Assembly: GCA_038042445.1 (NCBI GenBank)
Contig: JBBTED010000018.1
Coordinates: 24,081 to 88,080 of the forward strand
Direction of reading: 5' to 3'
DNA: 64,000 bases
Source of the DNA: Candidatus Firestoneibacteriota bacterium
GTDB lineage: Bacteria > Oederibacteriota > D2-FULL-39-29 > JBBTED01
The notes beneath the pieces are model-generated. The model saw only the letters and a program-made list of their open reading frames with translations, was not told the origin of the DNA and did no database searches. This document shows, in pieces, positions 18,831 to 50,557 of this stretch (the stretch's first letter is position 1; the number at the start of each line of letters is the position of its first letter). The translations under genes were made by a program, and so were the position numbers.

Positions 18831-18854
18831 ATACGGTGGACTACTAGTTAAAAA

Positions 18855-21519: not shown

Positions 21520-21520
21520 A

Positions 21521-23076: not shown

Positions 23077-23103
23077 TAAATATGATAATGATAAAAAAAT
23101 ATT

Positions 23104-23391
23104 ATGACAACTAAAGCTAATTATTTAGAGAAAGAAGTTGAGATAGCAAATAAACTTGGATTGCATTTGCGTGCTGCTGCACTTTTTGTTAAACTTGCAA
23201 ATCAGTATAAAAGTGAAGTATTTGTGAAAAAAGGCGTCCAGCAGGTAGATGGTAAGTCTATAATGGGGATAATGACTTTAGCAGCTCCGTTTGGTTCTAA
23301 AATAAAAATAATGTCAAAAGGGTCAGATGCAAACGAAATGCTTAATGCTTTGGAAAAACTTATAAAAATTAAATTTGGAGAAAAAGAATAA
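23104..23391 (+). CDS. ptsH: Phosphocarrier protein HPr.
   Basis: It has GLHLRAAA (His15 region) and GKSIMG (Ser46 region), and is 95 aa long. Confidence 0.85.
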   Translation: MTTKANYLEKEVEIANKLGLHLRAAALFVKLANQYKSEVFVKKGVQQVDGKSIMGIMTLAAPFGSKIKIMSKGSDANEMLNALEKLIKIKFGEKE

Positions 23392-23425
23392 TGGCAAGGA
23401 TTTCTATGAAATGGCAGGAATTATT

Positions 23426-25180
23426 ATGAATGAATCAAATACTTTAAAGGGTATTTCTGCATCTGCCGGGATAGTTATAGGGAAAGCTTTTATATATAGT
23501 CCGGAAGATATTGTTATTTCTAAATATTCAATAGATATATCTGATGTAAAAAATGAAATTACCAGATTTCAAATTGCTTTAAAAAAAACCAGGCAGGAAA
23601 TAATAGTATTAAAAGACAAGCTTGGTAAAGAAATAGGGAAAGTGCACGCTAATATTTTTACAGCGCATCTATTAATACTTGATGATCCTATGCTTACTGC
23701 TGATACAATAAACGAAGTAAAAAAATCAAAATTCAATATTGAACACGTATTTTCTCAATCTTTGGCAAAGCTTACTCAAATGATAGAGTCTGTAGACGAC
23801 CCATATTTTAAAGAACGTGGAAATGACATAAAAGATGTAGGCAGACGTGTCCTAAAAAATCTTGTTGGTAAAAACAGAGAAACATTGGTTGATCTTAAAG
23901 AAGAAGTCATAGTTTTTGCAAAAGATCTTTCACCTTCGGATACTGCAACTATGCACAAAGAAAAAGTTATAGGTTTTGCAACTGATATTGGCGGCAAAAC
24001 TTCACATACTGCAATAATGGCACGTGCATTGCAAATTCCGGCAGTTGTGGGTTTAGGTAATGTTACTGAGAAAGTAACAGAGGGTGATATTGTAATAGTT
24101 GATGGCAATAGGGGTATAATTTTAATAAATCCAGATGAAGAAACTATTAAAAAATATTCTATTGAGCTGGAAAAATTTATTGCATTTGAACGTGAACTTG
24201 CAAATTTAAAAGATTTAAAAGCACAGACAAAAGATGATTATCTAATAAAGATTAATGCAAATATTGAAATTCCGGAAGAAATTCCACTTGTTCATAAACA
24301 TGGAGCAGAGGGCATAGGATTATATAGAACAGAATTTTTGTATTTAAACAAGCCAAATCTTCCGAGTGAGGAAGAACAGTTTAATGCGTATAGATTTGTA
24401 GTTGAGGAAATGGCACCAAAACCAGTTATATTGCGAACTCTTGATGTTGGTGGCGATAAATTTTTATCACATTTAAATCTTGCCAAAGAGATGAATCCAT
24501 TTTTAGGATTAAGAGCAATCAGACTTTGCTTGGCGCATCCTGATATATTTAGAGTGCAATTACGTGCAATATTGCGCGCAAGTGCTTATGGTAAATTAAA
24601 AATAATGTTTCCAATGATATCAAGTGTAGAAGAATTAAAGAAAGCAAAAGAATTTTTGGAAGAGGCAAAGAAGGAATTAAAGACAGATGGTTTTGCTTTT
24701 GACGAGAATATTGAGGTAGGTGTAATGATAGAAGTTCCATCAGCAGTTTTGATTGCTGATATATTAGCAAAAGAAGTTAGTTTTTTCAGTATTGGAACTA
24801 ATGATTTAATTCAATATACTTTGGCAATTGATAGGATAAATGAAAATATTGCACATTTATACAATCCTTTACATCCTGCAATTTTACGTTCTATAAAATT
24901 AATCATTGATGCAGCGCATAAAGCAAATATAGTAGTTGGAATGTGTGGAGAAATGGCAGGAGATTCTATATATACTTCAATATTACTTGGATTAGGGTTG
25001 GATAGCTTAAGTATGTCTCCTATTGCTATTCCAGAGGTGAAAAAGATAATTCGTTCTACGACGTTAAGAGAAGCAAAAGATTATGTTGGTAAAATATTTG
25101 CAATGTCAACAGCAGATGAAGTAAAAAAATTTGTTAATAGTAGCATTACAAAAAGGTATACAGTTGTTAAAGAATTTTGA
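23426..25180 (+). CDS. ptsI: PEP-protein phosphotransferase, Enzyme I.
   Basis: The N-terminus LKGISASAGIVIGKA, the catalytic-His region GGKTSHTAIMARAL, and the PEP-utilizing C-terminal domain are all present. The start is assigned to the ATG at 23426, which follows a GGA ribosome-binding site. The track's 23375 start overlaps HPr. Confidence 0.85.
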   Translation: MNESNTLKGISASAGIVIGKAFIYSPEDIVISKYSIDISDVKNEITRFQIALKKTRQEIIVLKDKLGKEIGKVHANIFTAHLLILDDPMLTADTINEVKKSKFNIEHVFSQSLAKLTQMIESVDDPYFKERGNDIKDVGRRVLKNLVGKNRETLVDLKEEVIVFAKDLSPSDTATMHKEKVIGFATDIGGKTSHTAIMARALQIPAVVGLGNVTEKVTEGDIVIVDGNRGIILINPDEETIKKYSIELEKFIAFERELANLKDLKAQTKDDYLIKINANIEIPEEIPLVHKHGAEGIGLYRTEFLYLNKPNLPSEEEQFNAYRFVVEEMAPKPVILRTLDVGGDKFLSHLNLAKEMNPFLGLRAIRLCLAHPDIFRVQLRAILRASAYGKLKIMFPMISSVEELKKAKEFLEEAKKELKTDGFAFDENIEVGVMIEVPSAVLIADILAKEVSFFSIGTNDLIQYTLAIDRINENIAHLYNPLHPAILRSIKLIIDAAHKANIVVGMCGEMAGDSIYTSILLGLGLDSLSMSPIAIPEVKKIIRSTTLREAKDYVGKIFAMSTADEVKKFVNSSITKRYTVVKEF

Positions 25181-31588: not shown

Positions 31589-33226
31589 ATGTTATCCAAA
31601 ATTCCAACAAGAATCCTAATAATTGATAATAATCAAGTCCAAAACGAATTATATTCTAAGTTAAAAAATAAAGGTTATGAAGCAATAGTTGTTTCTAATT
31701 CTGATGAAGGGATAAAAACAATAAAAGAGAACAAATTTGGTGTAATTATTATTAATACAAAGATAGTAGACAAAAAAACTATTAGCGTAATGAGAAAGAT
31801 AAAAGAAATGGACTCCAGAATAGAAAGAGTTGTAATTTGTAAGAATACTAAAGATGCAAAAATGGAATATTTTGACCGAATTATTAATAAATCTATGAAT
31901 GTTGAGGATGTGGTTGTTATAATAGAAAAAACATTAGAAAAATACCAATTGAAAGAAATGGTTGCTATGTATGAAAGAACGATGGATGTTTTTTCAACTT
32001 TAGAGTTCAATGAGTTGCCGAAGGTTATTATTGATTCTACTGTAGAAGAATTGAGAGCTGATGATGCTTCTTTAATGCTTTTTGATGATAACAAAAAACA
32101 ACTATATATTGTTGATTCAAATGGTTTATCTAAAGAAATTATAAGTGCAACCAAAATGTCTGTTGGTGAAGGAATATCCGGGTATGTAGTAAAAAATAGG
32201 AGACCACTGCTTCTAATAGATGGTTTAGAAAATGATCCAAGATTTAAACATATAAAACAAAAAGGTGTGCAAAGGAAAAATCCTATAACATCTTCTATTG
32301 TTGTGCCTTTGATAAAAAATAATAAAGTATTAGGGATTTTAAATATTAATCGTAGAAATATTATTGAGCATTTTACTGAGCATGATTTACATAAGGCAAA
32401 TACAGCTGCTTCTTTGATAAGCGTTGCAATTGAAAATGCAAAGATGCATTCTCATATTAAGAAAACCGGGGAACAGGAATTATTGAAAGTCCATGATGAA
32501 CTTCAAGAAGCATCTGAAAAGATAAGACAGATGCAGGTGCAACTCATTAGAGAAGAAAAGTTTTCCTTGCTGCATAAATTGACTTCATCTCTTGTGCATC
32601 AATTACGTACTCCTTTAAGTATAATTGATTTATCAGCTCAGTTTTTAAAAAAAGAAATTCAAGGTTCAGAAAAAATCATTTCAACTTTAAATACTATACA
32701 AAGAAATATACAACGTGCTAGTGATATTCTTCAGGATATGTTTGAGATGGTGCTTATTAAGGCTGAGACAATGAAATTTGAACGGTGTAGAATAGGAGAG
32801 ATACTGGAAAAAGCAATAGAAATAATGCAACCAAAATTAAATGGAGCAGGAGTTAATGTTAGAATGAAATGTGCAAAAGAAGAATTGCAATACATAAATA
32901 TAAATAAACATTATTTGGAGCATGTGGTTGTAAACTTAATTTCTAATTCAATAGATGCTATGTCTGAAGGTGGAGAAATAAATATTGACTTAAGTGTAGA
33001 TCCAAAAAGCGAAAAAATTGTTATGACTTTTGTTGATACAGGTAAAGGTGTTAAAGAAGAACATTTAAAAGAATTATTCACTCCTTTTTTTACAACCAAA
33101 GAAAAAGGTATAGGACTTGGGCTTTTTACAGTATTACAAATTATTGAAGCTCATCGTGGCGATATTAAAGTGAAAAGTGAATTAAATGTAGGAACAACAT
33201 TTATTATTTCCCTTCCAATTAAGTAA
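31589..33226 (+). CDS. Sensor histidine kinase with an N-terminal degenerate receiver-like domain and a GAF domain.
   Basis: The H-box is LVHQLRTPLS. The HATPase_c region has NLISNSIDAM...DTGKGV...GIGLGL. The receiver-like N-terminus lacks the canonical phosphoacceptor context. Confidence 0.75.
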   Translation: MLSKIPTRILIIDNNQVQNELYSKLKNKGYEAIVVSNSDEGIKTIKENKFGVIIINTKIVDKKTISVMRKIKEMDSRIERVVICKNTKDAKMEYFDRIINKSMNVEDVVVIIEKTLEKYQLKEMVAMYERTMDVFSTLEFNELPKVIIDSTVEELRADDASLMLFDDNKKQLYIVDSNGLSKEIISATKMSVGEGISGYVVKNRRPLLLIDGLENDPRFKHIKQKGVQRKNPITSSIVVPLIKNNKVLGILNINRRNIIEHFTEHDLHKANTAASLISVAIENAKMHSHIKKTGEQELLKVHDELQEASEKIRQMQVQLIREEKFSLLHKLTSSLVHQLRTPLSIIDLSAQFLKKEIQGSEKIISTLNTIQRNIQRASDILQDMFEMVLIKAETMKFERCRIGEILEKAIEIMQPKLNGAGVNVRMKCAKEELQYININKHYLEHVVVNLISNSIDAMSEGGEINIDLSVDPKSEKIVMTFVDTGKGVKEEHLKELFTPFFTTKEKGIGLGLFTVLQIIEAHRGDIKVKSELNVGTTFIISLPIK

Positions 33227-33233
33227 TACTTAT

Positions 33234-34844
33234 ATGCCTACCATTCTTATTGTTGATGACGAAAAAGATTTTTGTAATTCCCTTTCTGATTTACTTCAAA
33301 GTGAAGGATATGAAACTATAAGTGCATTTGGAGGCAGAGAAGCTATTTTCATATTAGAAAACAAATCTATAGATTTAGTATTTTTAGATATTAATCTTCC
33401 TGGAATGAAGGGAATTGAAGTTTTGGAGAAAATTAAAAATATAGAAGAAAGTCTACCTGTTATAATGCTTACAGGTTATGGAGAGATAAAATCAGCTGTT
33501 GACTCAATGAAAAAAGGAGCCTTCCATTACCTGACCAAACCATTTAACAATGACGAGTTGTTAATTGTGATTAAAAAAGCTATTGAAATTAAAAAATTAG
33601 GCAGAGAGGTTTATTTACTTAAAGAAAGATTACAGAAGCATGAAGAAAAAACAAAAATTATTTGTAAAAGCGAGAAAATGGAAAGGATGCTTGATGAAGT
33701 GAAACGCGTTGCACCAACGGATATGACAGTAATAATTCAAGGTGCTTCTGGTACAGGAAAAGAGTTGATTGCAAGATTTATTCATGAACTAAGTAAAAGA
33801 AAAACAGGCCCATTTATAGCGATAGATTGTGGGGCATTGCCTGAAAATTTAGTTGAGAGTGAACTTTTTGGTTATGAGAAAGGTGCTTTTACAGGCGCTG
33901 ACAAGGTGAAGCCTGGACATTTTGAACTTGCAGATGGGGGCACTTTATTTCTTGATGAAATTAGTAACTTATCACAAACTGTTCAAATGAAGTTGTTGCG
34001 TGTTTTGCAGGAAAAAAAAGTTCAACATCTTGGAGATAAAAAAGAAATAGGGGTTGATATTCGTATAGTTGTTGCAAGCAATATAAATCTTGATGAACTA
34101 ATGCCCAAAGGTCTATTTCGTGAAGATTTATATCACAGGTTAAATGAATTTACTATTAATTTGCCGTCACTCAAGGAAAGAAAAGAAGATATACTAATAT
34201 TAGTTGAACATTTTTTGAAACAAGCCAATTGTGAACTTAGCAAGAAAATCAAAGGTGTTGCTCACAATGCAATGGAAATTCTCAGTGAGTACAGTTGGCC
34301 TGGTAATGTGCGGGAGTTAAAAAATACTATTAAAAGAGCAGTATTATTAACAGAGGGAGATATAATTCTTCCGGAGCATATTAAATTGACAGATAATGCT
34401 TTGTCACATAAAATCTCCCTTAATCCCCCTTTGCTAAAGGGGGAAATTTCCTTAAAACAGATGCTTAATGCAATTGAGAGGGAATTGCTGATAAAAGCTT
34501 TAATGCAAACGAATTATCATAAAAGTAAGGCATCAAAACTTCTTGGAATAGATAGAAGTGTATTGTCTGATAAAATTAAAAAATATAAAGTATCTTCATC
34601 GAGTTTTTTAAAAAATTTCAGATATACAAACAATTTAAAAATAGGTAGTAAACATAGTCTTAAAAAAATAATTGATGATATAGAAAAACAAAAGATTACT
34701 GATGTTTTAAAAGAAGTAAATTATAAAATAGCCCAAGCATCAAAAATTCTTAAAATCACAAGAACAGATATTTATTACAAAATCAAAAAACATAATATAA
34801 CATTACCTATTGCAAATAAGTCTGTTGTCAGGCATCCTGCCTGA
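33234..34844 (+). CDS. Sigma54-dependent response regulator (NtrC family) with an unusually long C-terminus that carries two Fis-type HTH modules.
   Basis: The REC domain has DLVFLDINLPGMKG. The AAA+ domain has GASGTGKE, the GAFTGA motif in ESELFGYEKGAFTGA, and RVLQE. There are two C-terminal HTH-like segments. Confidence 0.85.
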   Translation: MPTILIVDDEKDFCNSLSDLLQSEGYETISAFGGREAIFILENKSIDLVFLDINLPGMKGIEVLEKIKNIEESLPVIMLTGYGEIKSAVDSMKKGAFHYLTKPFNNDELLIVIKKAIEIKKLGREVYLLKERLQKHEEKTKIICKSEKMERMLDEVKRVAPTDMTVIIQGASGTGKELIARFIHELSKRKTGPFIAIDCGALPENLVESELFGYEKGAFTGADKVKPGHFELADGGTLFLDEISNLSQTVQMKLLRVLQEKKVQHLGDKKEIGVDIRIVVASNINLDELMPKGLFREDLYHRLNEFTINLPSLKERKEDILILVEHFLKQANCELSKKIKGVAHNAMEILSEYSWPGNVRELKNTIKRAVLLTEGDIILPEHIKLTDNALSHKISLNPPLLKGEISLKQMLNAIERELLIKALMQTNYHKSKASKLLGIDRSVLSDKIKKYKVSSSSFLKNFRYTNNLKIGSKHSLKKIIDDIEKQKITDVLKEVNYKIAQASKILKITRTDIYYKIKKHNITLPIANKSVVRHPA

Positions 34845-34901
34845 CAAATTATATGATTATGAATATTTCATGTCCATATTGTGTCAAATATAACCACATA
34901 G

Positions 34902-34940
34902 CTGTAAAATTTTACAGCATTTAGCTGTATTATTTTACAT
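34902..34940. promoter_or_regulatory. Tandem palindromic upstream activator sites (candidate enhancer): CTGTAAAATTTTACAG and CTGTATTATTTTACAT. Both have the form TGTA-N6-TACA, with centres 23 bp apart.
   Basis: The sites lie about 85 and 108 bp upstream of the sigma54 -24 element, directly downstream of the NtrC-like gene. Confidence 0.55.
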
Positions 34941-35015
34941 ATTTGGGTTAAATATTTTCATCTCTTAAAACCCCTTTGTTTTATTAGAGTTTAATTCGCA
35001 TTTTCTATGTAATAT

Positions 35016-35031
35016 TGGCACGAAAATTGCA
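35016..35031 (+). promoter_or_regulatory. Sigma54 (-24/-12) promoter, TGGCACGaaaaTTGCA.
   Basis: It matches the consensus TGGCACG-N4-TTGCW perfectly. It lies upstream of the OMP/giant-adhesin genes. Confidence 0.7.
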
Positions 35032-35044
35032 TTATATAATAATC

Positions 35045-36457
35045 ATGGTAAAAATTACAAAATGGGGTAGGGGTAGAGACGTATTGCAATGCTTTTCTAC
35101 ATTTATAATTTTATCATTTTTTTCTTCAATTGGTTATGCTGATTTTGAGGATCTTGGTGTTGGGGCAAGATCATTTGGAATGGGTAATGCTTTTTCTGCA
35201 TTGGCAAATGATGCGAGTGCGATTTATTATAATCCAGCAGGACTTACTAATATTAAAAATGCTCAAATAATGACTGCTTATGACAGACTTTACCTTGGAC
35301 TTTCTGATAAAAGTATTTTAGGGGATGGATTTGTATCGGTTGTTTCTCCTCTTGATGAGGTTACTGGTATTGGAATAAGTTATGTAAATTTTCATCTTGT
35401 TAATTATTATCAGGAACATACGTTTGTTCTTTCTTATGGCAATAAGATATTTTCTCAGTTGTCTGCCGGTATAAATGTTAAAGGTTTATCCAGAGGTTTA
35501 AGTGAAGATATCTATACAAAAGTTGACCCATTATTTTTGGAAAAAGGGTATACAAAAACAAATTTTAGTTTTGATACAGGTTTGCTCTATAGACCATTTC
35601 CAAGTTATTCATTTGCACTTACAGCTTATAATATAAATCAACCGGATTTAGGTTTAAAAGACAAAGATATTGTTCCTATGAGTTTAAAATTAGGTTTTGC
35701 GTATCGTTATCATGCAAGCGATTTTGTTGTAGATTTTGCATATACTAATAAAGATTGGGATGTATATTTTGGAACTGAGAACTGGTTTTTTGAAAGATGT
35801 TTTGCACTAAGAGGCGGTGTTAAAACTGGAAGCAGAGCAGACAATGATTTGAGTGTTGGAATCGGATATAATTCTGGAAACATACAGTTTGATTATGCAG
35901 TTCAATATCCATTAAGTGGAATAAAAAATACTTTTGGTTCACATCGCATTTCTTTTGGAGTGAAATTTGGAGATGTGCTTCCGGAGTCAGATGATGAATT
36001 CGGATATATTCCTATGGTACCAAAAGAAGAAATTGAAAAAATCCAAAAAGAAGCAGAAGAGTCTGCACAAATGGTTCAAAAACTAAAAGAGGAGATTGAA
36101 AACTATAAAAAGAATTTAGAAGCCCTATCTGCAGAAAATGAAAAAAATAAAGAAAAAGAAGCAGAAGAATTAACAAAAAAAATTGAGCAATATAATAAAG
36201 AAATGACAAAAGCTCTAAAATCTGAAGTAGATGCAAGAGAAAAATTAAATAAAATAACTGTAAAAAATACAACATCTATAAAGGTAGATAAAAATACTTA
36301 TGTAGTTGAAAAAGGTGATACTTTAAAATCTATAGCAATAAAGTTATATAATGATGAATCTCGGTGGGTTAGTATTTATAATCTTAACAAAGATAGAATT
36401 AAGCAAGGGATTGTTGAGTCTGGGCAGATTTTGATTTTACCTGAGGAGAGGAAATGA
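35045..36457 (+). CDS. Outer-membrane beta-barrel protein (FadL/PorV-like N-terminal signature) with a C-terminal coiled coil and a LysM domain.
   Basis: It has a signal peptide. The motif VGARSFGMGNAFSALANDASAIYYNPAGL resembles the FadL-family N-terminal block (GRA..G.A..A..A....NPA). A KE-rich coiled coil follows. The LysM is YVVEKGDTLKSIA...ILILP. The start at 35045 was chosen because the track's TTG start overlaps the promoter. Confidence 0.6.
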   Translation: MVKITKWGRGRDVLQCFSTFIILSFFSSIGYADFEDLGVGARSFGMGNAFSALANDASAIYYNPAGLTNIKNAQIMTAYDRLYLGLSDKSILGDGFVSVVSPLDEVTGIGISYVNFHLVNYYQEHTFVLSYGNKIFSQLSAGINVKGLSRGLSEDIYTKVDPLFLEKGYTKTNFSFDTGLLYRPFPSYSFALTAYNINQPDLGLKDKDIVPMSLKLGFAYRYHASDFVVDFAYTNKDWDVYFGTENWFFERCFALRGGVKTGSRADNDLSVGIGYNSGNIQFDYAVQYPLSGIKNTFGSHRISFGVKFGDVLPESDDEFGYIPMVPKEEIEKIQKEAEESAQMVQKLKEEIENYKKNLEALSAENEKNKEKEAEELTKKIEQYNKEMTKALKSEVDAREKLNKITVKNTTSIKVDKNTYVVEKGDTLKSIAIKLYNDESRWVSIYNLNKDRIKQGIVESGQILILPEERK

Positions 36458-36501
36458 ATAACAGGTTAGCGGTTCTAAAAATATCCAATGTTATTGTAGC
36501 C

Positions 36502-36564
36502 GCAGAGCGAAGCTCTGCTAAAAAAGTAGTTGCAAGGTTAAAGACAGCAAAGCTTACGCTTTGC
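36502..36564 (+). promoter_or_regulatory. Two intercistronic hairpins, GCAGAGC-GAA-GCTCTGC and GCAAAGC-TTAC-GCTTTGC, between the OMP gene and the giant-protein gene.
   Basis: Both have perfect 7-bp stems. They lie upstream of the probable start of the giant CDS at 36589. Confidence 0.4.
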
Positions 36565-36588
36565 AGCTACATAAATCATATCAAATAT

Positions 36589-39500
36589 ATGAGTTTGTTG
36601 AATTTTAGAATGGTTAATCTATTACCTATTGCTTTTATTTTACTATTAACGGGCCAGGTTTTTGCAACAAGCAGAACAATGAGCGGTACCGTATACACGG
36701 ATGAGGGAGTGACTAATATTGGTTCTGGCAAAAATATGGCAATATCAGTTAATGGTGGTGTTGCAACTACTTTTGTAACAGGAGCAAATGGTGTTTATTC
36801 AGTAGCTGTAAATGTTACTACTAATGACAAAATATGTGTTTACTTAGATAATGAAACAGAAAAAGCTACTTTAGTTACTATAATTCTTGATGCTGACTTA
36901 AGTGGATTTAATTTGTACCAAAATCATTTAATTTTGCGTAAAGAAACAGGTGGTGCTGGAATTAACAATACTGATTTATCAGGTGCAGATAATGGTGATG
37001 CTGATATTCTTTATAATGTAAGTGGAGCTAATTTAACTGTTAATGCAGGAGTTGAATTGTATGTTTGGACAGGACATACTTATGCGTCTGATGGTAATAT
37101 TAATGCTGATGCAATAAAAATTAACGGGATTTTTACTAATACGACTGCAGGTTCAATAATTACTTGTGATGATGCAGGAAGTATTACTGTGAATGGAACT
37201 TGGACATTAACTGGAGGTGTAGGCAATTTAATTTCTTTAAAGTCTGATTTAGCAGGAAGTCAGTTTGATGTAATTAATAACGGTACAGTAAATTTGAGTT
37301 ATGTTGATTTAAAAGATTGTAATGCTTCTTCTTCGATTATTGTGACTGATGGAAATGATAGTGGAAATAACACATACGTTATTTTTCAGCCTGCTGTATA
37401 TGATGGTGCAGTGTTAACAGGAGATGGTGCTGGAAGTAATTCAGTATCTATTGATTCAATAAGTGGTGTTACAACAGGTGTTCAGATACTTTGCTTTAAA
37501 ATCAGTAATCCTGCGAGTACGGGAAATCAGGCAATAAAAATAGATCAGTTCACAATACATTTAGATGGCTCAAGTACAGCAGTAATTACTAATATTGCAG
37601 AAATTGCATTATCAGGTGCAGTAACTTCAACAGTTACTACTCCTGTTTCTAATGATATTACCTTTGGGACTCCTAATGTAGGTTTTGATGGTGGCATATT
37701 GAGTGTTTCTAATAATACTACTTCTTCTGATATTGTTGTGAAAATTAAATTAAAAACTACTTTAACTGCTACAGAAACTCAATTCTGGAAATTCAATGTT
37801 GATGATGATGATGTTTCAGAGTCAAATTTGACATCAGATATGATGGGTACAACTGGAGTAGATATAGCTGGTTCAAGTTGTGCATTATCAATTGTTGCTA
37901 CGAAGTTAGTATGGACAACGCTTCCTGCAGACACCAGAATAGTAGACGTAAGTGATGAAGTAGTGAGTGGGTTAGTATGGCAGACACAGCCTGTAGTAAA
38001 GGCAGTGGATGCAAATAATAATGTAGATATAGATTCAGTAGAAACAGTAACATTAAGTTTGGTAGGTGGAGCAGGAACATTTGCTGGAACATTAACAGAA
38101 GGATGTGTAAGTGGAGTGGCAAATTTTGTTGGTAATGGAATAAAGTATACAGTAAGTGGAAATAATGATGGTGAAGGATTTGTCCTAAGAGCAAGTGGAG
38201 GTGCATTAACAACAGCAGATACAAGTGGATTATCAGCAGATGTAGTAGCAACGAAATTAGTATGGACTACAGTTCCAGCAGATAGCAGGAGAGTAGATGT
38301 AAGTGATGAAGTAGTAAGTGGATTAGCATTTGAGACACAGCCAGTAGTAAAGCCAGAGGATGATGATAATAAAGTAGATGCAGATTCAACGCAAATAGTA
38401 ACATTAAGTTTAATAAGTGGAGTAGGAACATTTGCAGGAACATTAACTAAAGCTTGTGTTCTTGGGGAAGCAAATTTCAGTAGCAATGGAGTAAAGTATA
38501 CAGTATCAGGTAATAATGAGGGGGAAACATTTGCAATAAGAGCAAGTGGAGGTAGTTTAACAGCAGCAGATACTGGTTTATTATCATCAGATATAGTAGC
38601 AAGTCAGTTGGTGTGGACACAATCAGCAAGTCATAGTGGAGTACCGAATGGAGACATAATAAGTGGAGTAGTATTTAATACACAGCCAAAAGTGGAGACA
38701 AGAGATGCAGATAATAAGTTGGATACTGATTATGTGAGTTCAGTAGTTTTAAGTGAGACAGGTGCTGGTTTTTTAAGTGGCACAACATCAGTAGCAGCAG
38801 TAAGTGGAGTGGTAACATATACTGGGATAGCATATAATGTGAATGCGGACCAGGAGAGTTTCACATTAAAAGCGGACAGTGGAAGTTTAACACAAGGGTC
38901 AGATACAAGTAAGGTGGCAGATGTAGTAGCAACGAAATTATCTTTTACTGTCCAGCCACAAGAGACAGGGCAAGCAGCAAATACAATAGTATCAGGTAAT
39001 GTATTTGACACACAGTCTCAAGTAGAAGCAAGGAATAATAGTGATAAAAAGGATGTAAATTTTATAGATACAGTTACAGTAGTTGAAACAGGAACAGGTA
39101 GTTTAAGTGGAACAAGTTCAGTAGCAGCAGTGGCAGGTGTAGTAACATTCACTAATTTAGTATATACAGCGGTTGTAGACAATGAGATGTTTAAGTTAAG
39201 TGCAGATGATACTCCTGGAGGGCAGGAAGGAAATTTAACCGGAACATTTGAGTCTGCGAATACAACAGCGAATGTCCTTGCAACAAAATTAGTGTTTGAT
39301 GTCCAACCTTCATCAAGTGTAGTTATGAATATTGATGTGGTAATTCATCCTGTCCTTAAAGCTTTAGATGCAAATAATACAATAGATGTTAATAATACTG
39401 ATACACTTACGATTAGTGCAGTATTATCAGCAGATTTGTCACCTGCCCCAGGAATTCTTACCATAACACCTTCTTCTGGTAGTAATATGATAAGTGGTAG

Positions 39501-42387
39501 TTGGACATCTACACTATTAAGACATAATACTCCAAATTTAATTAAGATAAAAGTTATTGGAAGTACTGTAGTTGGGCCTTATTATTCTAATGATATAAAT
39601 GTACTTTTAGATACAACTTTACCATCTTCAATTATGGATCTTAGTGCTTCTACAGGAGCTCTTGAAGGAGAAATAAATCTAACATGGACAGCACCAGGTG
39701 ATGAGGGAAATAGTGGGACGGTTACAGGTTATCTTGTCCGATATTCAACAAGTCCGATAAATAATCAAACTGATTTTGATAATGCCACTACTTATACACA
39801 AAGTTGGTCACCTTTATCGTATGGTAATACTGAAAATCAAACTATTACTATGCCAGTAAATGGTGTTACTTATTATATTGCTATTAAAGGTTTTGATGAG
39901 GTGCCGAATTATGCTCCATCATTTAATACTACAGGCAATAGTGCAGTATCACAAATAGATAGTGTGGCACCGTCTAACATAACTAATTTAGTTGTTACTA
40001 CAGGTGCTTTGAAGAGTCAGCTTAATCTAAACTGGACATCTGTTGGTGATAATGGAAATAGCGGGACAGCAACAAGTTATATTGTCCGATATTCTACTGC
40101 TCCTATTCTAAATCAGAATGATTTTAATAATGCATCAATTTATGTTCAAAGTTGGACTCCTTTAGCAACAGGAAATGCTGAAAGTAAAGTTATTTCTGGG
40201 CTTCAATCAGGTGTTCTTTATTATGTTGCTATTGAAGCAAAAGATGAGGCTGGAAATCAAGCAGGTCTTTCTAATACAGCCAATGCTAATGCTACGACTC
40301 AGATTGATGTGGCACCACCTGCTGCTATTATAAATTTAGCTGCAACTACTGGTTTGCAACATACTCAGATAAATTTAACATGGACAGCTACAGGTGATGA
40401 CCAGGATGTAGGAACAGCATCAAGATATATTGTCCGATATTCAACAAGTGCGATAAGTAATCAAACAGATTTTAATAATGCTAATACTTATGTGCAGAAT
40501 TGGGTTCCATTATCAGCAGGTAATCTAGAAACCAAGATACTTGCAGGATTAACAGCTGGTGTTACTTACTATATTGCTATTGAAGCAGTAGATATCGAAA
40601 GTAAGCAGGGAGCTATTTCAAATACTACAGGTAATAGTGCAGTTGCTAAAAATGATATTACTGTTCCTAGCAATATTGGTGATTTAGTAGCTACTACTGG
40701 TTCAATTGAGGGAGAAATTAATTTGACATGGACGGCATCAGGTGATGATGGAAATATTGGGACAGCTACGGGATATATTGTCCGATATTCAACAAGTGCG
40801 ATAAGTAATCAAACAGATTTTAATAATGCTAATACTTATGTTCAGAGTTGGGTTCCTTTATCAGCAGGTAATGTGGAAACCAAGACACTTACAGGATTAA
40901 CACCTGGTGTTACTTACTATATTGCAATTGAAACAATAGACGAAAAACCAAATCAAGCAATTGATTTTAATAAAACTGGAAATAGTGCAATGGCTCAATT
41001 GGATGTTACCAAACCGTCTGCTATTACAAATTTATCTACTTTTATTAGTGAAAATGATGAAAAAGGAGCAATTCATCTGACATGGACAGCATCAGGTGAT
41101 GATGGAAATATTGGCACAGCTACAGGATATCTTGTTCGATATTCAACAATCGCGATAACTAATCAAACAGATTTTGATAATGCAACTACTTATCAAAATA
41201 CTTGGGTTTCTTTGCCTACAGGTCAGAAAGAAGAAAAAACTATAACTGGTTTTTTGCCGGGTGTCCAGTATTACATTGCTATTGAATCAGTAGATGATAG
41301 AGGGAATACATCTGATTTATCTAATATTGCTGAAGGGACTCCACGAATTGATTTGATTCCACCATTAGAGCCAATAGGTATAAAATGTGATTTTAATGCT
41401 TCTGGTTATTTTGTTATTAACTGGAAAGCACCAAATAGAAATGAAGATGATAGTGTTCTAAATGATTTATCTGAATATCATATTTACCGTACGGCTAATA
41501 TTGATGGTGAATATGTATTGAAAAGTTCTGTATCTAAAGATACATTGAATTGGGTAGATATGGAAGTAACAACTACTACATCTGAAACATATTATTATAT
41601 CATAAAGGCAGTAGATTATTTCGGTAATGAGAGTAAATTATCAATGCAAATAAGTAATATAAATAAAGAAATTAGTATTGCTTTTAATGATGAAATTACT
41701 TTAAAATTACCTATAGAGATGAACAAATTGATTTATGGAGAATCTAATAAATATAAAGAAGACATTCGTTTTCAGTTAAAAAAGAAAATTGATGATGGAA
41801 AAAGAGTTTTAGGTAGTTATGAAATAAAAGCGATAAAGGAAAAAAATGGTGCAGAAATTAATAATTTCACTTTTGACAAACCAATTGAAATTGCTTTTAA
41901 ATATAGAAATAATAGTAGAGCACAAATGTTCAAAGCTTCTTTTATTCAAGAGGACTTTAAACCTACGGTTTTTGTGCATAATGGAGTTGAGTGGGTGAAA
42001 TTAGGTGGAAAAGTGGATAATAATTTAGAAAAAGTTGTTATAAAAACATCTAAGTTAGGAAATTTTATGCTTAAAGCTTCTGCTTCTTTAACTGAATTTA
42101 CTATTGTTCAGATTACTCCTTCTAAAATATTTACACCAAATGGAGATGGACAGTGGGATGTAATTGAGTTCTACTTTGAAAATCCACGTGATACTTATGT
42201 TAATTCAACAAAAATTTTTGATATTACCGGAGCTGAAGTTTGCGATATGCAATTAAGCAGTACAGGTAATTCTTATGTTTGGGATGGAAAAAATAGAAAT
42301 GGAGAAATTGTTTCTAATGGAGTTTATATTTACCAGATAGAAGTTGAAGGTAAAGTTTTAAATGGCACTATAATAGTAGCAAAGTGA
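36589..42387 (+). CDS. Giant secreted surface/adhesin-like protein of about 1930 aa. In order it has a signal peptide, a G/N/T-rich beta-helix-like N-terminal region, Ig-like repeats, about 7 FN3-like ~116-aa repeats, and a C-terminal T9SS type-B-like (gliding motility-associated) sorting domain.
   Basis: The signal peptide is MSLLNFRMVNLLPIAFILLLTGQVFA. The FN3-like repeats read LTWTA.GDDGN.GTATGY.VRYSTS.I.NQTDFNNA. The C-terminus FTPNGDGQWD...WDGKNRNGEIVSNGVYIYQIEV resembles the FxPNGDGxND...WDG...GVY.Y type-B CTD signature. Confidence 0.7.
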   Translation: MSLLNFRMVNLLPIAFILLLTGQVFATSRTMSGTVYTDEGVTNIGSGKNMAISVNGGVATTFVTGANGVYSVAVNVTTNDKICVYLDNETEKATLVTIILDADLSGFNLYQNHLILRKETGGAGINNTDLSGADNGDADILYNVSGANLTVNAGVELYVWTGHTYASDGNINADAIKINGIFTNTTAGSIITCDDAGSITVNGTWTLTGGVGNLISLKSDLAGSQFDVINNGTVNLSYVDLKDCNASSSIIVTDGNDSGNNTYVIFQPAVYDGAVLTGDGAGSNSVSIDSISGVTTGVQILCFKISNPASTGNQAIKIDQFTIHLDGSSTAVITNIAEIALSGAVTSTVTTPVSNDITFGTPNVGFDGGILSVSNNTTSSDIVVKIKLKTTLTATETQFWKFNVDDDDVSESNLTSDMMGTTGVDIAGSSCALSIVATKLVWTTLPADTRIVDVSDEVVSGLVWQTQPVVKAVDANNNVDIDSVETVTLSLVGGAGTFAGTLTEGCVSGVANFVGNGIKYTVSGNNDGEGFVLRASGGALTTADTSGLSADVVATKLVWTTVPADSRRVDVSDEVVSGLAFETQPVVKPEDDDNKVDADSTQIVTLSLISGVGTFAGTLTKACVLGEANFSSNGVKYTVSGNNEGETFAIRASGGSLTAADTGLLSSDIVASQLVWTQSASHSGVPNGDIISGVVFNTQPKVETRDADNKLDTDYVSSVVLSETGAGFLSGTTSVAAVSGVVTYTGIAYNVNADQESFTLKADSGSLTQGSDTSKVADVVATKLSFTVQPQETGQAANTIVSGNVFDTQSQVEARNNSDKKDVNFIDTVTVVETGTGSLSGTSSVAAVAGVVTFTNLVYTAVVDNEMFKLSADDTPGGQEGNLTGTFESANTTANVLATKLVFDVQPSSSVVMNIDVVIHPVLKALDANNTIDVNNTDTLTISAVLSADLSPAPGILTITPSSGSNMISGSWTSTLLRHNTPNLIKIKVIGSTVVGPYYSNDINVLLDTTLPSSIMDLSASTGALEGEINLTWTAPGDEGNSGTVTGYLVRYSTSPINNQTDFDNATTYTQSWSPLSYGNTENQTITMPVNGVTYYIAIKGFDEVPNYAPSFNTTGNSAVSQIDSVAPSNITNLVVTTGALKSQLNLNWTSVGDNGNSGTATSYIVRYSTAPILNQNDFNNASIYVQSWTPLATGNAESKVISGLQSGVLYYVAIEAKDEAGNQAGLSNTANANATTQIDVAPPAAIINLAATTGLQHTQINLTWTATGDDQDVGTASRYIVRYSTSAISNQTDFNNANTYVQNWVPLSAGNLETKILAGLTAGVTYYIAIEAVDIESKQGAISNTTGNSAVAKNDITVPSNIGDLVATTGSIEGEINLTWTASGDDGNIGTATGYIVRYSTSAISNQTDFNNANTYVQSWVPLSAGNVETKTLTGLTPGVTYYIAIETIDEKPNQAIDFNKTGNSAMAQLDVTKPSAITNLSTFISENDEKGAIHLTWTASGDDGNIGTATGYLVRYSTIAITNQTDFDNATTYQNTWVSLPTGQKEEKTITGFLPGVQYYIAIESVDDRGNTSDLSNIAEGTPRIDLIPPLEPIGIKCDFNASGYFVINWKAPNRNEDDSVLNDLSEYHIYRTANIDGEYVLKSSVSKDTLNWVDMEVTTTTSETYYYIIKAVDYFGNESKLSMQISNINKEISIAFNDEITLKLPIEMNKLIYGESNKYKEDIRFQLKKKIDDGKRVLGSYEIKAIKEKNGAEINNFTFDKPIEIAFKYRNNSRAQMFKASFIQEDFKPTVFVHNGVEWVKLGGKVDNNLEKVVIKTSKLGNFMLKASASLTEFTIVQITPSKIFTPNGDGQWDVIEFYFENPRDTYVNSTKIFDITGAEVCDMQLSSTGNSYVWDGKNRNGEIVSNGVYIYQIEVEGKVLNGTIIVAK

Positions 42388-42400: not shown

Positions 42401-42515
42401 TTCCGCATGTAGTAAGCGGGAATCCAGTGTCTTTTATTGGTAGTAGTACGCTTAGGCGGACGAAGTATGTAGTTGCCGATTTATCGGCATATTGTTTTAG
42501 GAGGGGGATTTTAAA

Positions 42516-44396
42516 ATGTCTGATTTTAAATGGAAGTTTTCTGAACATCTGAAATTTGTGCCAAGATTATCAGGTGTAGAAAAAAACAAGATGGAAAAGA
42601 CTACTGATATACAAAATACGATTAAACAATTGAGATTGAGTGAATTGCAAATGTTATATATAGAAAAAGTAGAGGAATCACGCAAGTTAATGGATAAAAC
42701 AGAAGACTTAGTTAAGTTGATAGAAGAAAAAAATAATAACTGGAATGACAAATTAGAATCATTAAGACAAAAAGAAAGTGAAATAAGTTCTTTGTCTGAA
42801 AGGTTAGAAACAAAAGAGAAAATTGCAGATAAATTTGTTGATGAGGTGAAATCTAAAAAAGATAAATTGGAGATAAATGCAGAAGAAATAAATAGATATA
42901 ATAAAGAATTAGTATCGTTACTGGTAGAATTAAAAGGGAAACAGTATAGTAAAGAATTTGAGCAAATAGATAAACTTAATAAAGAATTGCGTCTATTAGC
43001 TGAGGAAAGAGATATAGCAGTTACGAGATGCGAAGAAAAAACACAGGAAGTTGAACGTGTTAGATGGGAGTTGCAGTCTTTAGCTATACAGTTTGAAGAG
43101 AGGGAGAAGAATTGGAATGAGAAAATTAAGATGTATGAGCCTGATAAGGAAAAGTTAGAGAAGCAGAATGCAGATAAAGGACAGCAGATAGATAGATTAA
43201 AAAAAGAATTGCAGGCATTGATAGAGGAGAGAAATATACTAAATACCAATTACGAAGAAAAAATACAGGAAGTTAAACGGCTTAAAGATGAGTTGCATTT
43301 TTTAAACATACGGTTTGAAGAGAAAGAGAATAATTGGAGTGAGAATATTAAGTTATTTAGGCAGGAGCAGGTAGAATTAAACAGGCAGAATGCAGATAAA
43401 GGACAACAAATAGATAGATTTAATAAAAAATTACAGGCATTAGCAGAAGAGAAAAATACAGTAAGTACGAAATATGAAGAAAAAGTAAAAGAAATAGATA
43501 GATTAAATAGTGAATTCAAAAAAACACTTGAAAGATTTAGGGAAAATGAAAAAGTAGGAGAAAAAAATAGTGAAGAGTTAAGGGATAAGAAAAGGGAATT
43601 AACATTAAAGGAACAAGAAATAAATCAACTTAAAGAAAAATTAAAGATATTAGAGGGAAAGAAAGATGTGGATGGGAAAATAAATGATACAAACGTTCAA
43701 GAAAAAACTAAACAAATTGAAGAAATGTTAAAAGTGGAAAGAGTAGTTATGAAAGAATTAATTTTTGGTGTTGTTCACCAAATACGTAATCCATTGGGAA
43801 TAATTAGTACAAATACTCAATTCCTTTTGAAAAAGAAAAAATATAAAAAGGGTGAAGACAAATTATTGCAAGTGATTTTTAATACTGTTGAAAGTTTTAA
43901 TAGGAAAATTGATATATTTCTTGAACTTGCCAATCCAATAGAATTGTTTACACAGGTTGTTTCTTTAAGTAAGGTTTTAGATGGGATTTTTTCAATTGTT
44001 GAAGAAAAATGTAAAATGCAAAATATTAAGTTAATAAAAGGTTATCCTGCAGACTTACCTAAAGCAGAGGTTGACGCTAATAAATTGAGTCAGGCATTGC
44101 TTAATATTTTCTCCAATTCTTTGTTTGCTACTCCTGAGGGAGGTACTATTGAAGTAAATACACATTTGGATTTTGGAAAAAAAGAAGTTGCGATTAGATT
44201 TGTAGATAATGGTAGTGGAATTTCTCAAGTGTATATTGATCAAGTAGGGATACCATTTTTTACCACAAAGAAAGACGCATTAGGATTGGGAATTTTTTCT
44301 GCAAAACGTATTATAATTTCTCATAAAGGGCATATTAAAATCGATACCAATTCTGACAAAGGAATAACTGTAACTGTATTTTTGCCATATTGTTAA
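42516..44396 (+). CDS. Cytoplasmic histidine kinase with an N-terminal coiled coil (~400 aa, internally repetitive).
   Basis: It has no TM segments. The H-box is VVHQIRNPLGIIS. The HATPase_c region has DNGSGI...GLGLGI. Confidence 0.75.
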   Translation: MSDFKWKFSEHLKFVPRLSGVEKNKMEKTTDIQNTIKQLRLSELQMLYIEKVEESRKLMDKTEDLVKLIEEKNNNWNDKLESLRQKESEISSLSERLETKEKIADKFVDEVKSKKDKLEINAEEINRYNKELVSLLVELKGKQYSKEFEQIDKLNKELRLLAEERDIAVTRCEEKTQEVERVRWELQSLAIQFEEREKNWNEKIKMYEPDKEKLEKQNADKGQQIDRLKKELQALIEERNILNTNYEEKIQEVKRLKDELHFLNIRFEEKENNWSENIKLFRQEQVELNRQNADKGQQIDRFNKKLQALAEEKNTVSTKYEEKVKEIDRLNSEFKKTLERFRENEKVGEKNSEELRDKKRELTLKEQEINQLKEKLKILEGKKDVDGKINDTNVQEKTKQIEEMLKVERVVMKELIFGVVHQIRNPLGIISTNTQFLLKKKKYKKGEDKLLQVIFNTVESFNRKIDIFLELANPIELFTQVVSLSKVLDGIFSIVEEKCKMQNIKLIKGYPADLPKAEVDANKLSQALLNIFSNSLFATPEGGTIEVNTHLDFGKKEVAIRFVDNGSGISQVYIDQVGIPFFTTKKDALGLGIFSAKRIIISHKGHIKIDTNSDKGITVTVFLPYC

Positions 44397-44443
44397 ATAA
44401 TTTATTTCTTCCCCTGATAAGGGGGAGATAGAGGGGGTTATAA

Positions 44444-45667
44444 ATGTATAATATTCTTATTATAGATGATGAACAGGAGATGATTGATGCACTTAGAAAT
44501 ATTTTAGAGCAAGATGGATATACTGTTACTGCTACAACTGATGGTGTAAGTGCATTAAAAAAAGTAGAAAACAATAATTTTGATGTTGTTTTATTAGATG
44601 TTCGCATTCCTGGTATGGATGGTATTCAGATTTTAGAACAGATTAAAAAAACAAATAAAAATCTTCCTGTTATTATGGTTACAGGCTATGGAGATACAAA
44701 AACTTCAGTACAGGCAATGAAATTAGGAGCATTTGATTATATTTCTAAGCCTTTTAATTATGAAGAATTAATTAATCTTATTGAGAAAGCTGTTCAAATG
44801 AATAAATTAGAAGGGAAATCTGGAATATATGAAAACCAATTGACAAGGAAACCTGAAGGGGCTCGGGCAATTGAAAAGGAGAAAGAGAAAAAAATAGCTC
44901 AAGAAAGTGTGCCTTATATCAAACATAATCGAATCCAGTTGAAAGTAGTATTTGCAATTTGTTTGAGCGTAATAATTTTATCACTTGGTATTTTTTATTA
45001 TTTGCAAATTTTTTCCGGCAAAACACAAATCTATTTGACTACTTGTACTAATCCTTCTGCTATAACATGTGACAAAGAATATCTTTGGATAAATGACTGG
45101 GTTACAAATATAATATATAAACATAAACTAGTTAAACAGCTTCCTGTTGTAAAAAAATATAGCTTTAACAATTTACACCTAACAGGCATAGCATTAGCAG
45201 GGAATATGATTTTTACATGCGATATTGAAAATAAGAAAATTTATAAGCATAATATTGATGATAACCTGACAATTATTGATACTTATCCTAGCCCTGGTAT
45301 TAGTCCATCAGGTATTTTCTGGGATGGGAAATATCTTTGGTCATGCGATGCTGAAAGTGATAAGATATACAAACAATATTTTGACGGTAAAAATCTTGTT
45401 GTTATTGAAACATATCCAAGTCCTTCAACACATCCTATAGGTGTTGCTTATTATAAAGAATATTTATGGTCTGCTGATGCTGATACAAATAAGATATATA
45501 AACATGAATTAGATAAAACTCTTTCAGTTGTAGACACGTATTATATACCTAAAGAAGAGGCATCTATTTCCAGTTTTACATTAATAGACGGTAAAATATG
45601 GGTTGTTACTGAAGACAATAATAAAGTATTTTCATATAGTTTATCACATATTATGAAGAATAAATAA
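44444..45667 (+). CDS. Response-regulator receiver domain fused to a single TM helix and an extracytoplasmic domain of about five ~47-aa beta-propeller-like repeats.
   Basis: The REC domain has DVVLLDVRIPGMDG. The TM is VVFAICLSVIILSLGIFYYL. The repeats have the form ...GI.WDGKYLW..D....KIYKH. Confidence 0.65.
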   Translation: MYNILIIDDEQEMIDALRNILEQDGYTVTATTDGVSALKKVENNNFDVVLLDVRIPGMDGIQILEQIKKTNKNLPVIMVTGYGDTKTSVQAMKLGAFDYISKPFNYEELINLIEKAVQMNKLEGKSGIYENQLTRKPEGARAIEKEKEKKIAQESVPYIKHNRIQLKVVFAICLSVIILSLGIFYYLQIFSGKTQIYLTTCTNPSAITCDKEYLWINDWVTNIIYKHKLVKQLPVVKKYSFNNLHLTGIALAGNMIFTCDIENKKIYKHNIDDNLTIIDTYPSPGISPSGIFWDGKYLWSCDAESDKIYKQYFDGKNLVVIETYPSPSTHPIGVAYYKEYLWSADADTNKIYKHELDKTLSVVDTYYIPKEEASISSFTLIDGKIWVVTEDNNKVFSYSLSHIMKNK

Positions 45668-48267: not shown

Positions 48268-48343
48268 GGGGCTGTAGCGTAGTTGGGAGCGCGTCTCCTC
48301 GGCAGGGAGAAGGTCACGGGTTCAAATCCCGTCAGCTCCACCA
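48268..48343 (+). tRNA. tRNA-Ala (anticodon GGC).
   Basis: The sequence folds into a cloverleaf by hand. It has a G3:U70 pair, A73 and an encoded CCA. The anticodon loop is TCGGCAG, with an unusual C33. Confidence 0.7.
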
Positions 48344-50294: not shown

Positions 50295-50372
50295 TGGGGT
50301 GGATGAGGGGACTTGAACCCCCAGCCTCACGGGCCACAGCCATGCGCTCTAACCAGTTGAGCTACATCCACC
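50295..50372 (-). tRNA. tRNA-His (anticodon GTG) with an encoded G-1.
   Basis: The cloverleaf was folded by hand. The anticodon loop is CTGTGGC. The extra 5' G pairs with C73. Confidence 0.8.
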
Positions 50373-50383
50373 ATTTTACTTCA

Positions 50384-50460
50384 TGGTGCGCCCGAGAGGA
50401 TTCGAACCTCCGGCCAATTGATTAGAAATCAATTGCTCTATCCAACTGAGCTACGGGCGC
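50384..50460 (-). tRNA. tRNA-Arg (anticodon TCT).
   Basis: The cloverleaf was folded by hand. The acceptor stem is GCGCCCG/CGGGCGC. The anticodon loop is TTTCTAA. Confidence 0.8.
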
Positions 50461-50479
50461 ATATTTAAAATTTTAAGAT

Positions 50480-50557
50480 TGGTCGGGGCGCTCGGATTTG
50501 AACCGAGGGCCTCCTGCTCCCAAAGCAGGCGCGCTAAGCCAGCTGCGCCACGCCCCG
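50480..50557 (-). tRNA. tRNA-Pro (anticodon TGG).
   Basis: The cloverleaf was folded by hand. The acceptor stem is CGGGGCG/CGCCCCG. The anticodon loop is TTTGGGA. Confidence 0.8.

Follow-up and report, generated by a model that had tools for sequence, protein, structure and literature searches.

A predicted sigma-54-controlled operon for a PorV-like barrel and a giant surface protein in an uncultured Candidatus Firestonebacteria bacterium

Positions 31589-42387 of a 64-kb stretch of DNA (hereafter the window; G+C ~30%) from an uncultured groundwater bacterium, Candidatus Firestonebacteria, probably constitute a module for signal-controlled expression, in which a regulatory operon is followed by its target operon. 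The regulatory operon codes for a pseudo-receiver/GAF sensor histidine kinase (HK1) and an NtrC-class sigma-54 enhancer-binding response regulator (bEBP; the activator). The target operon, which begins after a 200-bp spacer, codes for an outer-membrane barrel and an fn3-repeat adhesin, this gene order being taken from the map of open reading frames (ORFs) and from domain scans. A complete regulatory circuit had been proposed here in a first-pass annotation of the same DNA; all of its elements were found, at the positions given there or no more than 1-2 nt away, and the conservation of the promoter and palindromes in related loci argues for reading them as one circuit. The principal features, all numbered by window position, are the following.

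31589-33226 (+): HK1 sensor histidine kinase, 545 amino acids (aa), with a degenerate N-terminal receiver, GAF, HisKA and HATPase domains
33234-34844 (+): NtrC-class bEBP, 536 aa, with a receiver (REC), an AAA+ domain with GAFTGA, and two tandem Fis-type helix-turn-helix (HTH) domains of the HTH_8 family
34882-34895 (unstranded): weak site S0, TGTCAAATATAACC, 21 bp upstream of S1, read from the sequence
34903-34916 (core; unstranded): S1, TGTA-N6-TACA palindrome TGTAAAATTTTACA within CTGTAAAATTTTACAG
34926-34939 (core; unstranded): S2, TGTA-N6-TACA palindrome TGTATTATTTTACA within CTGTATTATTTTACAT
35016-35031 (+): predicted sigma-54 promoter, TGGCACGaaaaTTGCA / TGGCACGAAAATTGCA, with GG at 35017-18 and GC at 35029-30
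35045-36457 (+): outer-membrane protein, 470 aa, with a signal peptide, a barrel (about aa 33-310), two long helices (aa 327-408) and a putative LysM domain (aa 418-466)
36454-42387 (+): giant surface protein (the adhesin), 1977 aa from the ATG that overlaps the barrel gene, made up of an N-terminal region, six ~100-aa Ig-like repeats, six or more fn3 domains and a CHU_C C-terminal domain (CTD)

The barrel protein is identical in sequence to hypothetical protein AABY84_01865 of a Candidatus Firestonebacteria metagenome-assembled genome from Hainich groundwater, where its contig measures 88 kb. A search of the GTDB genomes with the barrel protein alone returned no relative, so that the host species lies outside that GTDB collection. 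Comparison loci, designated below by L and a number, were gathered around relatives of the barrel protein: 80 came from GTDB genomes, 80 from metagenomes, and several from exact look-up. The search patterns for these relatives were built from a 7-sequence alignment, a 24-sequence alignment being too divergent for patterns.

The element upstream of the barrel gene had been described as a perfect -24/-12 promoter, and it does fit the consensus TGGCAC-N5-TTGCW at 12/12 positions, with the GG and GC 10 bp apart. Only two such matches with zero mismatches occur in the 64 kb, versus none in 100 shuffles. The annotation had also named a lack of the palindromes, or of their conservation, in orthologous loci as grounds for refutation, and the same comparison can be made for the promoter. 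As far as the promoter is concerned, the element recurs at the barrel gene in six other loci, in every case directly upstream and 13-27 nt 5′ of the barrel ATG:

L004: TGGCACGatatTTGCT, 12/12
L170: TGGCACttgagTTGCT, 11/12
L169: TGGCACtattaTTGCA, 11/12
L087: TGGCATaattaTTGCT, 10/12
L005: TGGCATtataaTTGCA, 10/12
L007: TGGCATaagaaTTGCC, 9/12

The background frequency of motifs scoring at least 10/12 is 2.2e-5 per position across 2.7 Mb of strand, and the chance of finding one in a 40-nt window is ~1e-3 per locus. Two further loci, L010 and L105, have promoter variants with TTGT (GT) at -12. About 150 more distant loci, mostly from Elusimicrobia, possess neither the motif nor an adjacent activator gene, with one exception (L008) that has a sigma-54-like site; sigma-54 control thus appears to be a trait of a narrow sub-clade.

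The second perfect match in the window, TGGCACG-N4-TTGCA at 24018-24033 (+), is found inside ptsI (enzyme I). Because it sits on the codons of the conserved active-site-region motif MARALQ, it is probably coincidental, a by-product of protein sequence and codon choice; an internal sigma-54 site within ptsI is the less likely alternative.

Transcription from sigma-54 promoters starts ~12 nt downstream of the -12 GC, and this usual geometry, counted from the C at 35030, would place the start site of the barrel operon at ~35042. The ATG at 35045 would then lie ~3 nt into the message, as the first-pass annotation had pointed out in calling it near-leaderless, and the same geometry recurs, so that four loci now share it. 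The -12 element and the ATG are separated by 13 nt in the window, 15 nt in L004, 15 nt in L087 and 16 nt in L170; in all four the ATG falls 3-6 nt past the predicted start and lacks a Shine-Dalgarno sequence, a feature that (or something like it) is present at approximately half of the window genes. The gap in L005, L169 and L007 is 26-27 nt, which leaves just enough room for AGGAGG, GGAGGG or GGAAGG. A TTG at 35084 was considered as the start of the barrel gene and rejected, since the signal peptide would lose its charged N-region and L004 and L170 contain no alternative in-frame start before the signal-peptide core.

Two palindromes with centres 23 bp apart had been reported in the spacer, 85-108 bp from the promoter; both are present, at 84-107 bp. 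Measured from where the -24 element starts, their centres lie 106.5 bp (S1) and 83.5 bp (S2) upstream. The pattern TGTA-N6-TACA occurs four times in the window (1.67 expected), and two of the four are in the 200-bp spacer. The corresponding array of L004 is made up of three sites of the TGT-N8-ACA type (TGTAAAATTTCACA, TGTCAAAAATAGCA and TGTTTTATTTGACA) at spacings of 21 and 23 bp, and S0, S1 and S2 are in register with it. L007 carries TGTA-N8-TACA and TGTA-N6-TACA 21 bp apart, of the same motif class as S1 (TGTAAAAATATACA). Other loci have palindromes of their own: TGTAGA-N6-TCTACA in L005 and L169, TGTCC-N8-GGACA in L087 and L170, and TCGG[CT]A-N6-TGCCGA in L010 and L105, where the activators share the helix IGYRTLYNKMKKYGL. 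The palindromes are always situated between the upstream gene and the promoter. As to their conservation in orthologous loci, they are kept within sub-clades (window/L004/L007, L005/L169, L087/L170 and L010/L105) and differ in sequence between them. The activators of the window/L004 and L010/L105 pairs share their HTH recognition helices, and the palindromes differ where the helices differ. Sites that are kept with the recognition helices and changed with them fit the pattern expected of cognate activator sites. A scan of the spacer for sites of integration host factor returned 2-mismatch matches only, which are meaningless in DNA this AT-rich.

Upstream of these sites, at the end of the activator gene, we find one further element:

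34825-34847 (+): 10-bp GC-rich perfect hairpin, TTGTCAGGCA tcc TGCCTGACAA, an inverted repeat with 100% complementary arms that spans the activator stop codon

This hairpin, which lacks a clear U-tract, may close the regulatory operon as its 3′ end or terminator.

The activator possesses the features required of the NtrC-type protein that it had been taken for. Pfam matches comprise Sigma54_activat (1.6e-68; profile positions 1-167 of 168), Response_reg (1.3e-30) and HTH_8 in two stretches, the doubling of the latter being an addition to the earlier description. The receiver residues D8, D9, D52, T80 and K102 can be read from the translation, and the GAFTGA loop is intact (ESELFGYEKGAFTGA). 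The best NCBIfam matches are to AtoC, a PEP-CTERM response regulator and NtrC; none reaches its equivalog cut-off, and the protein is thus best regarded as a family member rather than an ortholog of AtoC, NtrC or ZraR. The activator of L004 is 66% identical, with near-identical HTH helices, and it too has the second HTH. The best 120 database relatives are 441-484 aa in length and none has a double HTH. The activator gene immediately precedes that of the barrel in the window, L004, L005 and L087; it is also upstream in L007, L010 and L105, with a small receiver gene (L007) or a CTD gene (L105) in between. Among the six loci that keep the promoter element, those with enough contig on the 5′ side generally show a bEBP gene there.

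HK1 had been described as a GAF-histidine kinase. The GAF-HisKA-HATPase architecture is confirmed by Pfam (GAF_2 5e-15, HisKA 4.9e-9, HATPase_c 8.8e-24), and to it must be added a degenerate N-terminal receiver that had gone unmentioned (Response_reg at a sub-threshold 26.9 bits); at the position of its phospho-acceptor Asp stands an Asn (IIINT in the translation). No membrane segment is evident in the HK1 translation, so the protein is presumably a soluble, cytoplasmic kinase. Orthologs of HK1 are encoded upstream of the bEBP in L005 and L087.

The first product of the target operon had been called a FadL/PorV-like outer-membrane protein, and its predicted structure agrees with this. The AlphaFold2 model (mean pLDDT 84.5) contains a barrel of 14 strands, two long helices and a small C-terminal domain. 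In the PDB it is matched best by chain F, which we take to be PorV, of two type 9 translocon complexes from Flavobacterium, 8gl6 and 6h3i (E 2e-12); FadL and TodX come next. With 8gl6_F and 6h3i_F the target TM-score is 0.64-0.65 and the root-mean-square deviation (rmsd) 4.0-4.7 Å at 15-17% identity, compared with an rmsd of 9-11 Å for FadL. The protein matches the NCBIfam PorV/PorQ model (NF033709) over profile positions 8-326 of 326 with 65.4 bits (E 6.6e-18), and Toluene_X of Pfam weakly; there is no match to PorP/SprF (TIGR03519) at E <= 0.01. Among 24 barrel relatives all match the PorV/PorQ model (best E 8e-29), 11 match PorP/SprF weakly, and 20 match an NCBIfam LysM protein model. LysM (PF01476) scores 18.6 bits in the window protein, against a gathering score of 20.9, and aa 418-464 are modelled as a compact strand-helix-helix-strand unit; PF01476 is among the precomputed assignments of many relatives, and the tails of the relatives are LysM, TPR or OmpA. 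Judged by the model, then, the barrel is closest to PorV and is extended by a periplasmic coiled coil and a putative LysM domain.

The adhesin gene begins at an ATG (36454) that overlaps the barrel stop codon (ATGA) and is preceded by GAGGAG. The ~1930-aa FN3 protein of the first-pass annotation is in fact an ORF of 1977 aa, although the earlier length is approached (~1932 aa) if translation starts at the signal peptide (36589). The fn3 match has an E-value of 1.3e-21. CHU_C (PF13585; nt 42121-42384) scores 29.5 bits in the full protein and 37.4 bits as an isolated domain, above the Pfam gathering score of 27, which upholds the description of the CTD as like type B of the type 9 secretion system (T9SS). 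Over its last 713 aa the adhesin shares 47% identity with the CTD protein of L006. Two features border the region coding for the mature protein:

36458-36588 (+): 131-nt stretch between the barrel stop and the adhesin signal peptide, RNA fold -54.9 kcal/mol, z = -5.6
42474-42489 (+): terminator-like hairpin TGCCGATTTATCGGCA with a T-rich tail, in the gap that separates the adhesin gene from the kinase gene after it, identified by consensus match only

No other copy of the 131-nt stretch was found, and it is missing from L004, where the signal peptide begins at the overlapping ATG. It could be an intercistronic structured RNA, or else code for a 45-aa N-terminal extension.

Proteins of this CTD family (PNGDG...WDG...GVYIYQ...NGTVVVAR) are encoded in 40 of the 168 fetched loci, mostly directly beside the barrel gene. 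They range from ~130 to ~2000 aa, and either the CTD gene or the barrel gene may come first. All of the 25 CTDs tested match CHU_C, and 20 also match, weakly, the type-A model TIGR04183. A database search with the CTD alone returned five small CHU_C proteins, so the taxonomic spread of the domain cannot be inferred from it. At the short end of the range are proteins of ~130-150 aa that comprise little beyond a signal peptide and a CHU_C-like CTD (L105 2588-2986; P0118-P0122); the mini-CTD gene of L105 is located between the sigma-54-like promoter and the barrel gene.

A number of observations weigh against the circuit proposed here. An rpoN gene, sought through its RpoN-box motif, was not found in the 64-kb window, in ~15 kb of contig flank or in any fetched locus. 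Elusimicrobium minutum, a member of the phylum that one marker-gene tree places closest to Firestonebacteria (PMC7031533), has no sigma-54, but it lacks the activators too (PMC3162934). Across genomes sigma-54 and its activators co-occur (PMC3162934), which together with the intact activator argues for an rpoN in the host genome. A sigma70-like sequence, TTGGCA-17-AATAAT (10/12), overlaps the promoter, and either of the two HTH domains of the activator could be the reader of the palindromes. On the side of the target operon, the barrel falls short of the 90-bit PorV/PorQ cut-off, and the CTD scores 22.8-29.5 bits with TIGR04131, below the cut-off of 35. No T9SS core gene (SprA/Sov, PorK/L/M/N, PorU and others) was seen in the window or the contig flank; apart from a generic FGE-sulfatase domain (97.9 bits versus a cut-off of 350), nothing there resembled GldK. 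As the T9SS has been described as specific to Bacteroidetes (PMC7463736), the route of the adhesin across the outer membrane is hard to account for. Our literature search returned nothing on T9SS in Elusimicrobia or Firestonebacteria, and nothing linking sigma-54 to T9SS-type cargo or PorV-like barrels.

These points admit other explanations of the locus. The overlapping sigma70-type promoter (-35 TTGGCA, -10 AATAAT) might itself read the operon, the palindromes acting as a terminator or operator for something else and the activator having its target elsewhere. The 10/12 match at 35015-43 speaks for this, as does the weak terminator-like hairpin, followed by a T-rich tail, that the right half of S1 can form with the left half of S2; matches of this promoter type are, moreover, common in AT-rich DNA. 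Their number in the window, however, is barely above that in shuffles (93 versus 76.6), and a start 7 nt past this -10 would lie after the ATG. What the orthologs preserve is TGGCA[CT]-N5-TTGC and not the -10 hexamer, the equivalent positions reading TGAACC in L087 and AATTAA in L005. The hairpin and T-tract are likewise absent as a conserved feature from L004, L005 and L169, which keep the palindromes; the sites are for this reason unlike terminators, and we consider sigma70 transcription very improbable. Somewhat less improbable, though still quite unlikely, is a true sigma-54 promoter that is served by another enhancer-binding protein, or by the adjacent activator independently of the palindromes, which would then be incidental or belong to another factor. 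The variation of the palindromes between sub-clades would accord with this, and in L170 an IS200-type Y1 transposase gene (1115-2008, -) lies upstream of the conserved palindrome and sigma-54 promoter; no activator gene was seen on that contig, the ORF beyond the transposase not being one. In seven loci, on the other hand, the activator gene lies upstream of the barrel gene and is separated from it by one small gene at most, and the palindromes are kept exactly where the HTH helices are kept.

The partnership between the two products of the target operon can also be doubted. If the barrel were a FadL-type transporter of hydrophobic substrates, merely co-transcribed with an unrelated surface protein, the strong structural matches to FadL and TodX, the weak Toluene_X match and the scores below the curated PorV and type-B cut-offs would all find an explanation. 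We nevertheless hold this to be highly unlikely, because the translocon barrels are the best structural matches and have the lowest rmsd, every relative examined matches the PorV/PorQ models, and genes for the same CTD adjoin the barrel gene in 40 loci irrespective of gene order and of protein length (130 or 2000 aa). FadL transporters are not known to carry a periplasmic LysM, TPR or OmpA tail.

Returning to the sigma-54 circuit, we propose that a cytoplasmic ligand or partner would act on the GAF or pseudo-receiver module of HK1, which would phosphorylate Asp52 of the activator. Activator dimers bound to the phased TGT-N8-ACA sites (S1, S2 and the weak S0) would form an AAA+ ring ~85-135 bp upstream of the promoter; contact between this ring and the closed complex of RNA polymerase-sigma54 at TGGCACG-N4-TTGCA, with ATP hydrolysis, would open the promoter. 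Transcription from ~35042 would yield an mRNA with ~3 nt before the AUG and without a Shine-Dalgarno sequence, and its translation might in effect be leaderless. The 14-stranded, PorV/PorP-like barrel would be tied to peptidoglycan through its periplasmic coiled coil and LysM, and the CTD of the adhesin (~1,950 aa) may be the handle by which the barrel receives or anchors the adhesin on the cell surface. By analogy, such a pair would parallel SprF-SprB and PorP-PorE-PG1035 of the Bacteroidota.

One may go further and regard the barrel and CHU_C protein as a self-contained display or secretion module of Firestonebacteria and Elusimicrobia that operates without a T9SS core, or as an ancestral form of the T9SS. 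The barrel of such a module would carry its own peptidoglycan tether (LysM, TPR or OmpA) as a fusion; in this sub-clade the module would be sigma-54-switched and near-leaderless, and its position beside FliF/FliG-fusion-like and MotA/MotB genes in sister lineages would point to a motor-coupled adhesin machine of a kind not yet described. We offer this extension tentatively and think it unlikely in its entirety. The FliF/FliG-fusion-like gene, with or without MotA/MotB, is found in 13 of 76 Elusimicrobia-type loci (L012, L014, L015, L019, L022, L028, L033, L039, L042, L047, L050, L051 and L056; e.g., L014 4985-9088). It follows the barrel/CTD cassette and codes for a protein of 480-585 aa in which FliG_M and FliG_C are joined to a signal or membrane segment and a weak FliF-like part; in three of these loci MotA and two MotB/OmpA genes come next. 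This cassette may represent a motor-coupled surface machine. The window contains no FliG or Mot genes, and one single-cell genomics study reports that flagellar genes are clearly missing from Elusimicrobia and Firestonebacteria (PMC7031533).

Downstream of the adhesin gene, and outside the coordinates covered by the first-pass annotation, is a second two-component pair (42516-45667, +) consisting of a kinase (HK2) and a response regulator (RR2):

42516-44396 (+): HK2, 626 aa, with a 400-aa coiled coil and HisKA-HATPase
44444-45667 (+): RR2, 407 aa, with REC, one membrane helix (~aa 165-195) and a ~210-aa extracytoplasmic repeat domain

The repeats of RR2 (YLW..D...IYKH) are propeller-like, and beyond REC the protein has no family or PDB match. 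In L006 and L171 an ortholog of RR2 (40% and 37% identity, respectively) is encoded beside a barrel/CTD cassette, along with a coiled-coil kinase, and the arrangement in L172 is similar. Of the 76 Elusimicrobia-type loci, 36 have a histidine kinase gene as a neighbour.

Elsewhere in the window, a phosphotransferase system cluster (17953-25180, +) encodes a PtsN-like EIIA_2, mannose-family EIIA/B/C/D interrupted by a gene for a GH57 glucanotransferase, and enzyme I. PtsN-like EIIA often accompanies rpoN in other bacteria; here rpoN is not adjacent to the gene for the PtsN-like EIIA. Three tandem paralogous ORFs of ~575 aa occupy 1543-6698 (+), the second and third being near-identical just upstream of their ATGs, and a separate ORF of 1343 aa is found at 11573-15604 (+); the large ORFs at 167-6698 and 11573-15604 gave no Pfam or NCBIfam match. 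Four tRNA genes are located at 48268-48340 (+) and 50298-50557 (-), and an Rfam scan of the window found tRNAs only. The tRNA at 48268 overlaps the mechanically assigned TTG start (48283) of a glycosyltransferase ORF, so that the true start is probably further downstream.

In its general organization the locus resembles the NtrB/NtrC-type systems (AtoSC, ZraSR), with adjacent genes for a kinase and a REC-AAA+-HTH_8 protein with a GAFTGA loop, and with dyad sites approximately two helical turns apart ~80-135 bp upstream of a GG-N10-GC promoter. Unlike them, HK1 is presumably soluble, with a pseudo-receiver and GAF instead of a PAS or periplasmic sensor; the activator has two tandem HTH_8 domains, an arrangement absent from its 120 closest database relatives; and the promoter abuts the start codon, with a predicted leader of 3-6 nt. 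The regulatory design is textbook NtrC/sigma-54 and teaches nothing new in itself.

The target operon invites comparison with the Bacteroidota, where type-B CTD proteins bind PorP-like barrels and PorP binds PorE, a periplasmic and outer-membrane-associated protein (PMC9143113) with TPR and OmpA_C-like domains (PMC12773672). Adjacent genes, a 14-stranded FadL/PorV-type barrel and a giant repeat adhesin with a CHU_C CTD are held in common with the PorP/SprF pairs (SprF-SprB; PorP-PorE-PG1035; PMC9143113), as would be a link to peptidoglycan, made in PorP-PorE of P. gingivalis by the OmpA_C-like domain of PorE (PMC12773672). The differences are that the host belongs to the Firestonebacteria/Elusimicrobia and not to the Bacteroidota, that the barrel itself bears the predicted peptidoglycan module (LysM here, and in relatives TPR or OmpA), which would otherwise reside in a separate PorE, and that the window barrel fits PorV/PorQ models better, while its partner's CTD lies below the TIGR04131 cut-off and is also type-A-like. 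PorV of Flavobacterium johnsoniae, the T9SS shuttle, is the best structural match and likewise has 14 strands; the window barrel departs from it in a ~160-aa extension, predicted to be periplasmic, of coiled coil and putative LysM, in scoring below the curated threshold, and in being encoded beside one specific cargo, PorV being a general component. A promoter that drives an operon for an outer-membrane protein and an adhesin fits the theme of sigma-54 regulons, whose focus is reported to be the cell exterior (Francke et al. 2011, PMC3162934).

Three points are unusual: the double HTH of the activator, a sigma-54 mRNA predicted to be near-leaderless and, outside the Bacteroidota, a barrel and cargo of T9SS-like type with a putative peptidoglycan tether fused to the barrel. 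The last two of these are modestly novel. With a single kinase and activator, three sites, a promoter and two products inside 11 kb, the circuit is directly testable, and for it the natural variants in related loci form a ready-made mutational series. A conserved near-leaderless sigma-54 transcript, if real, would raise the question of how such mRNAs are translated. If the circuit proves true, it would represent sigma-54 control of a T9SS-like cargo/barrel pair outside the Bacteroidota, and it would provide a first handle on gene regulation in a phylum that has no cultured member.

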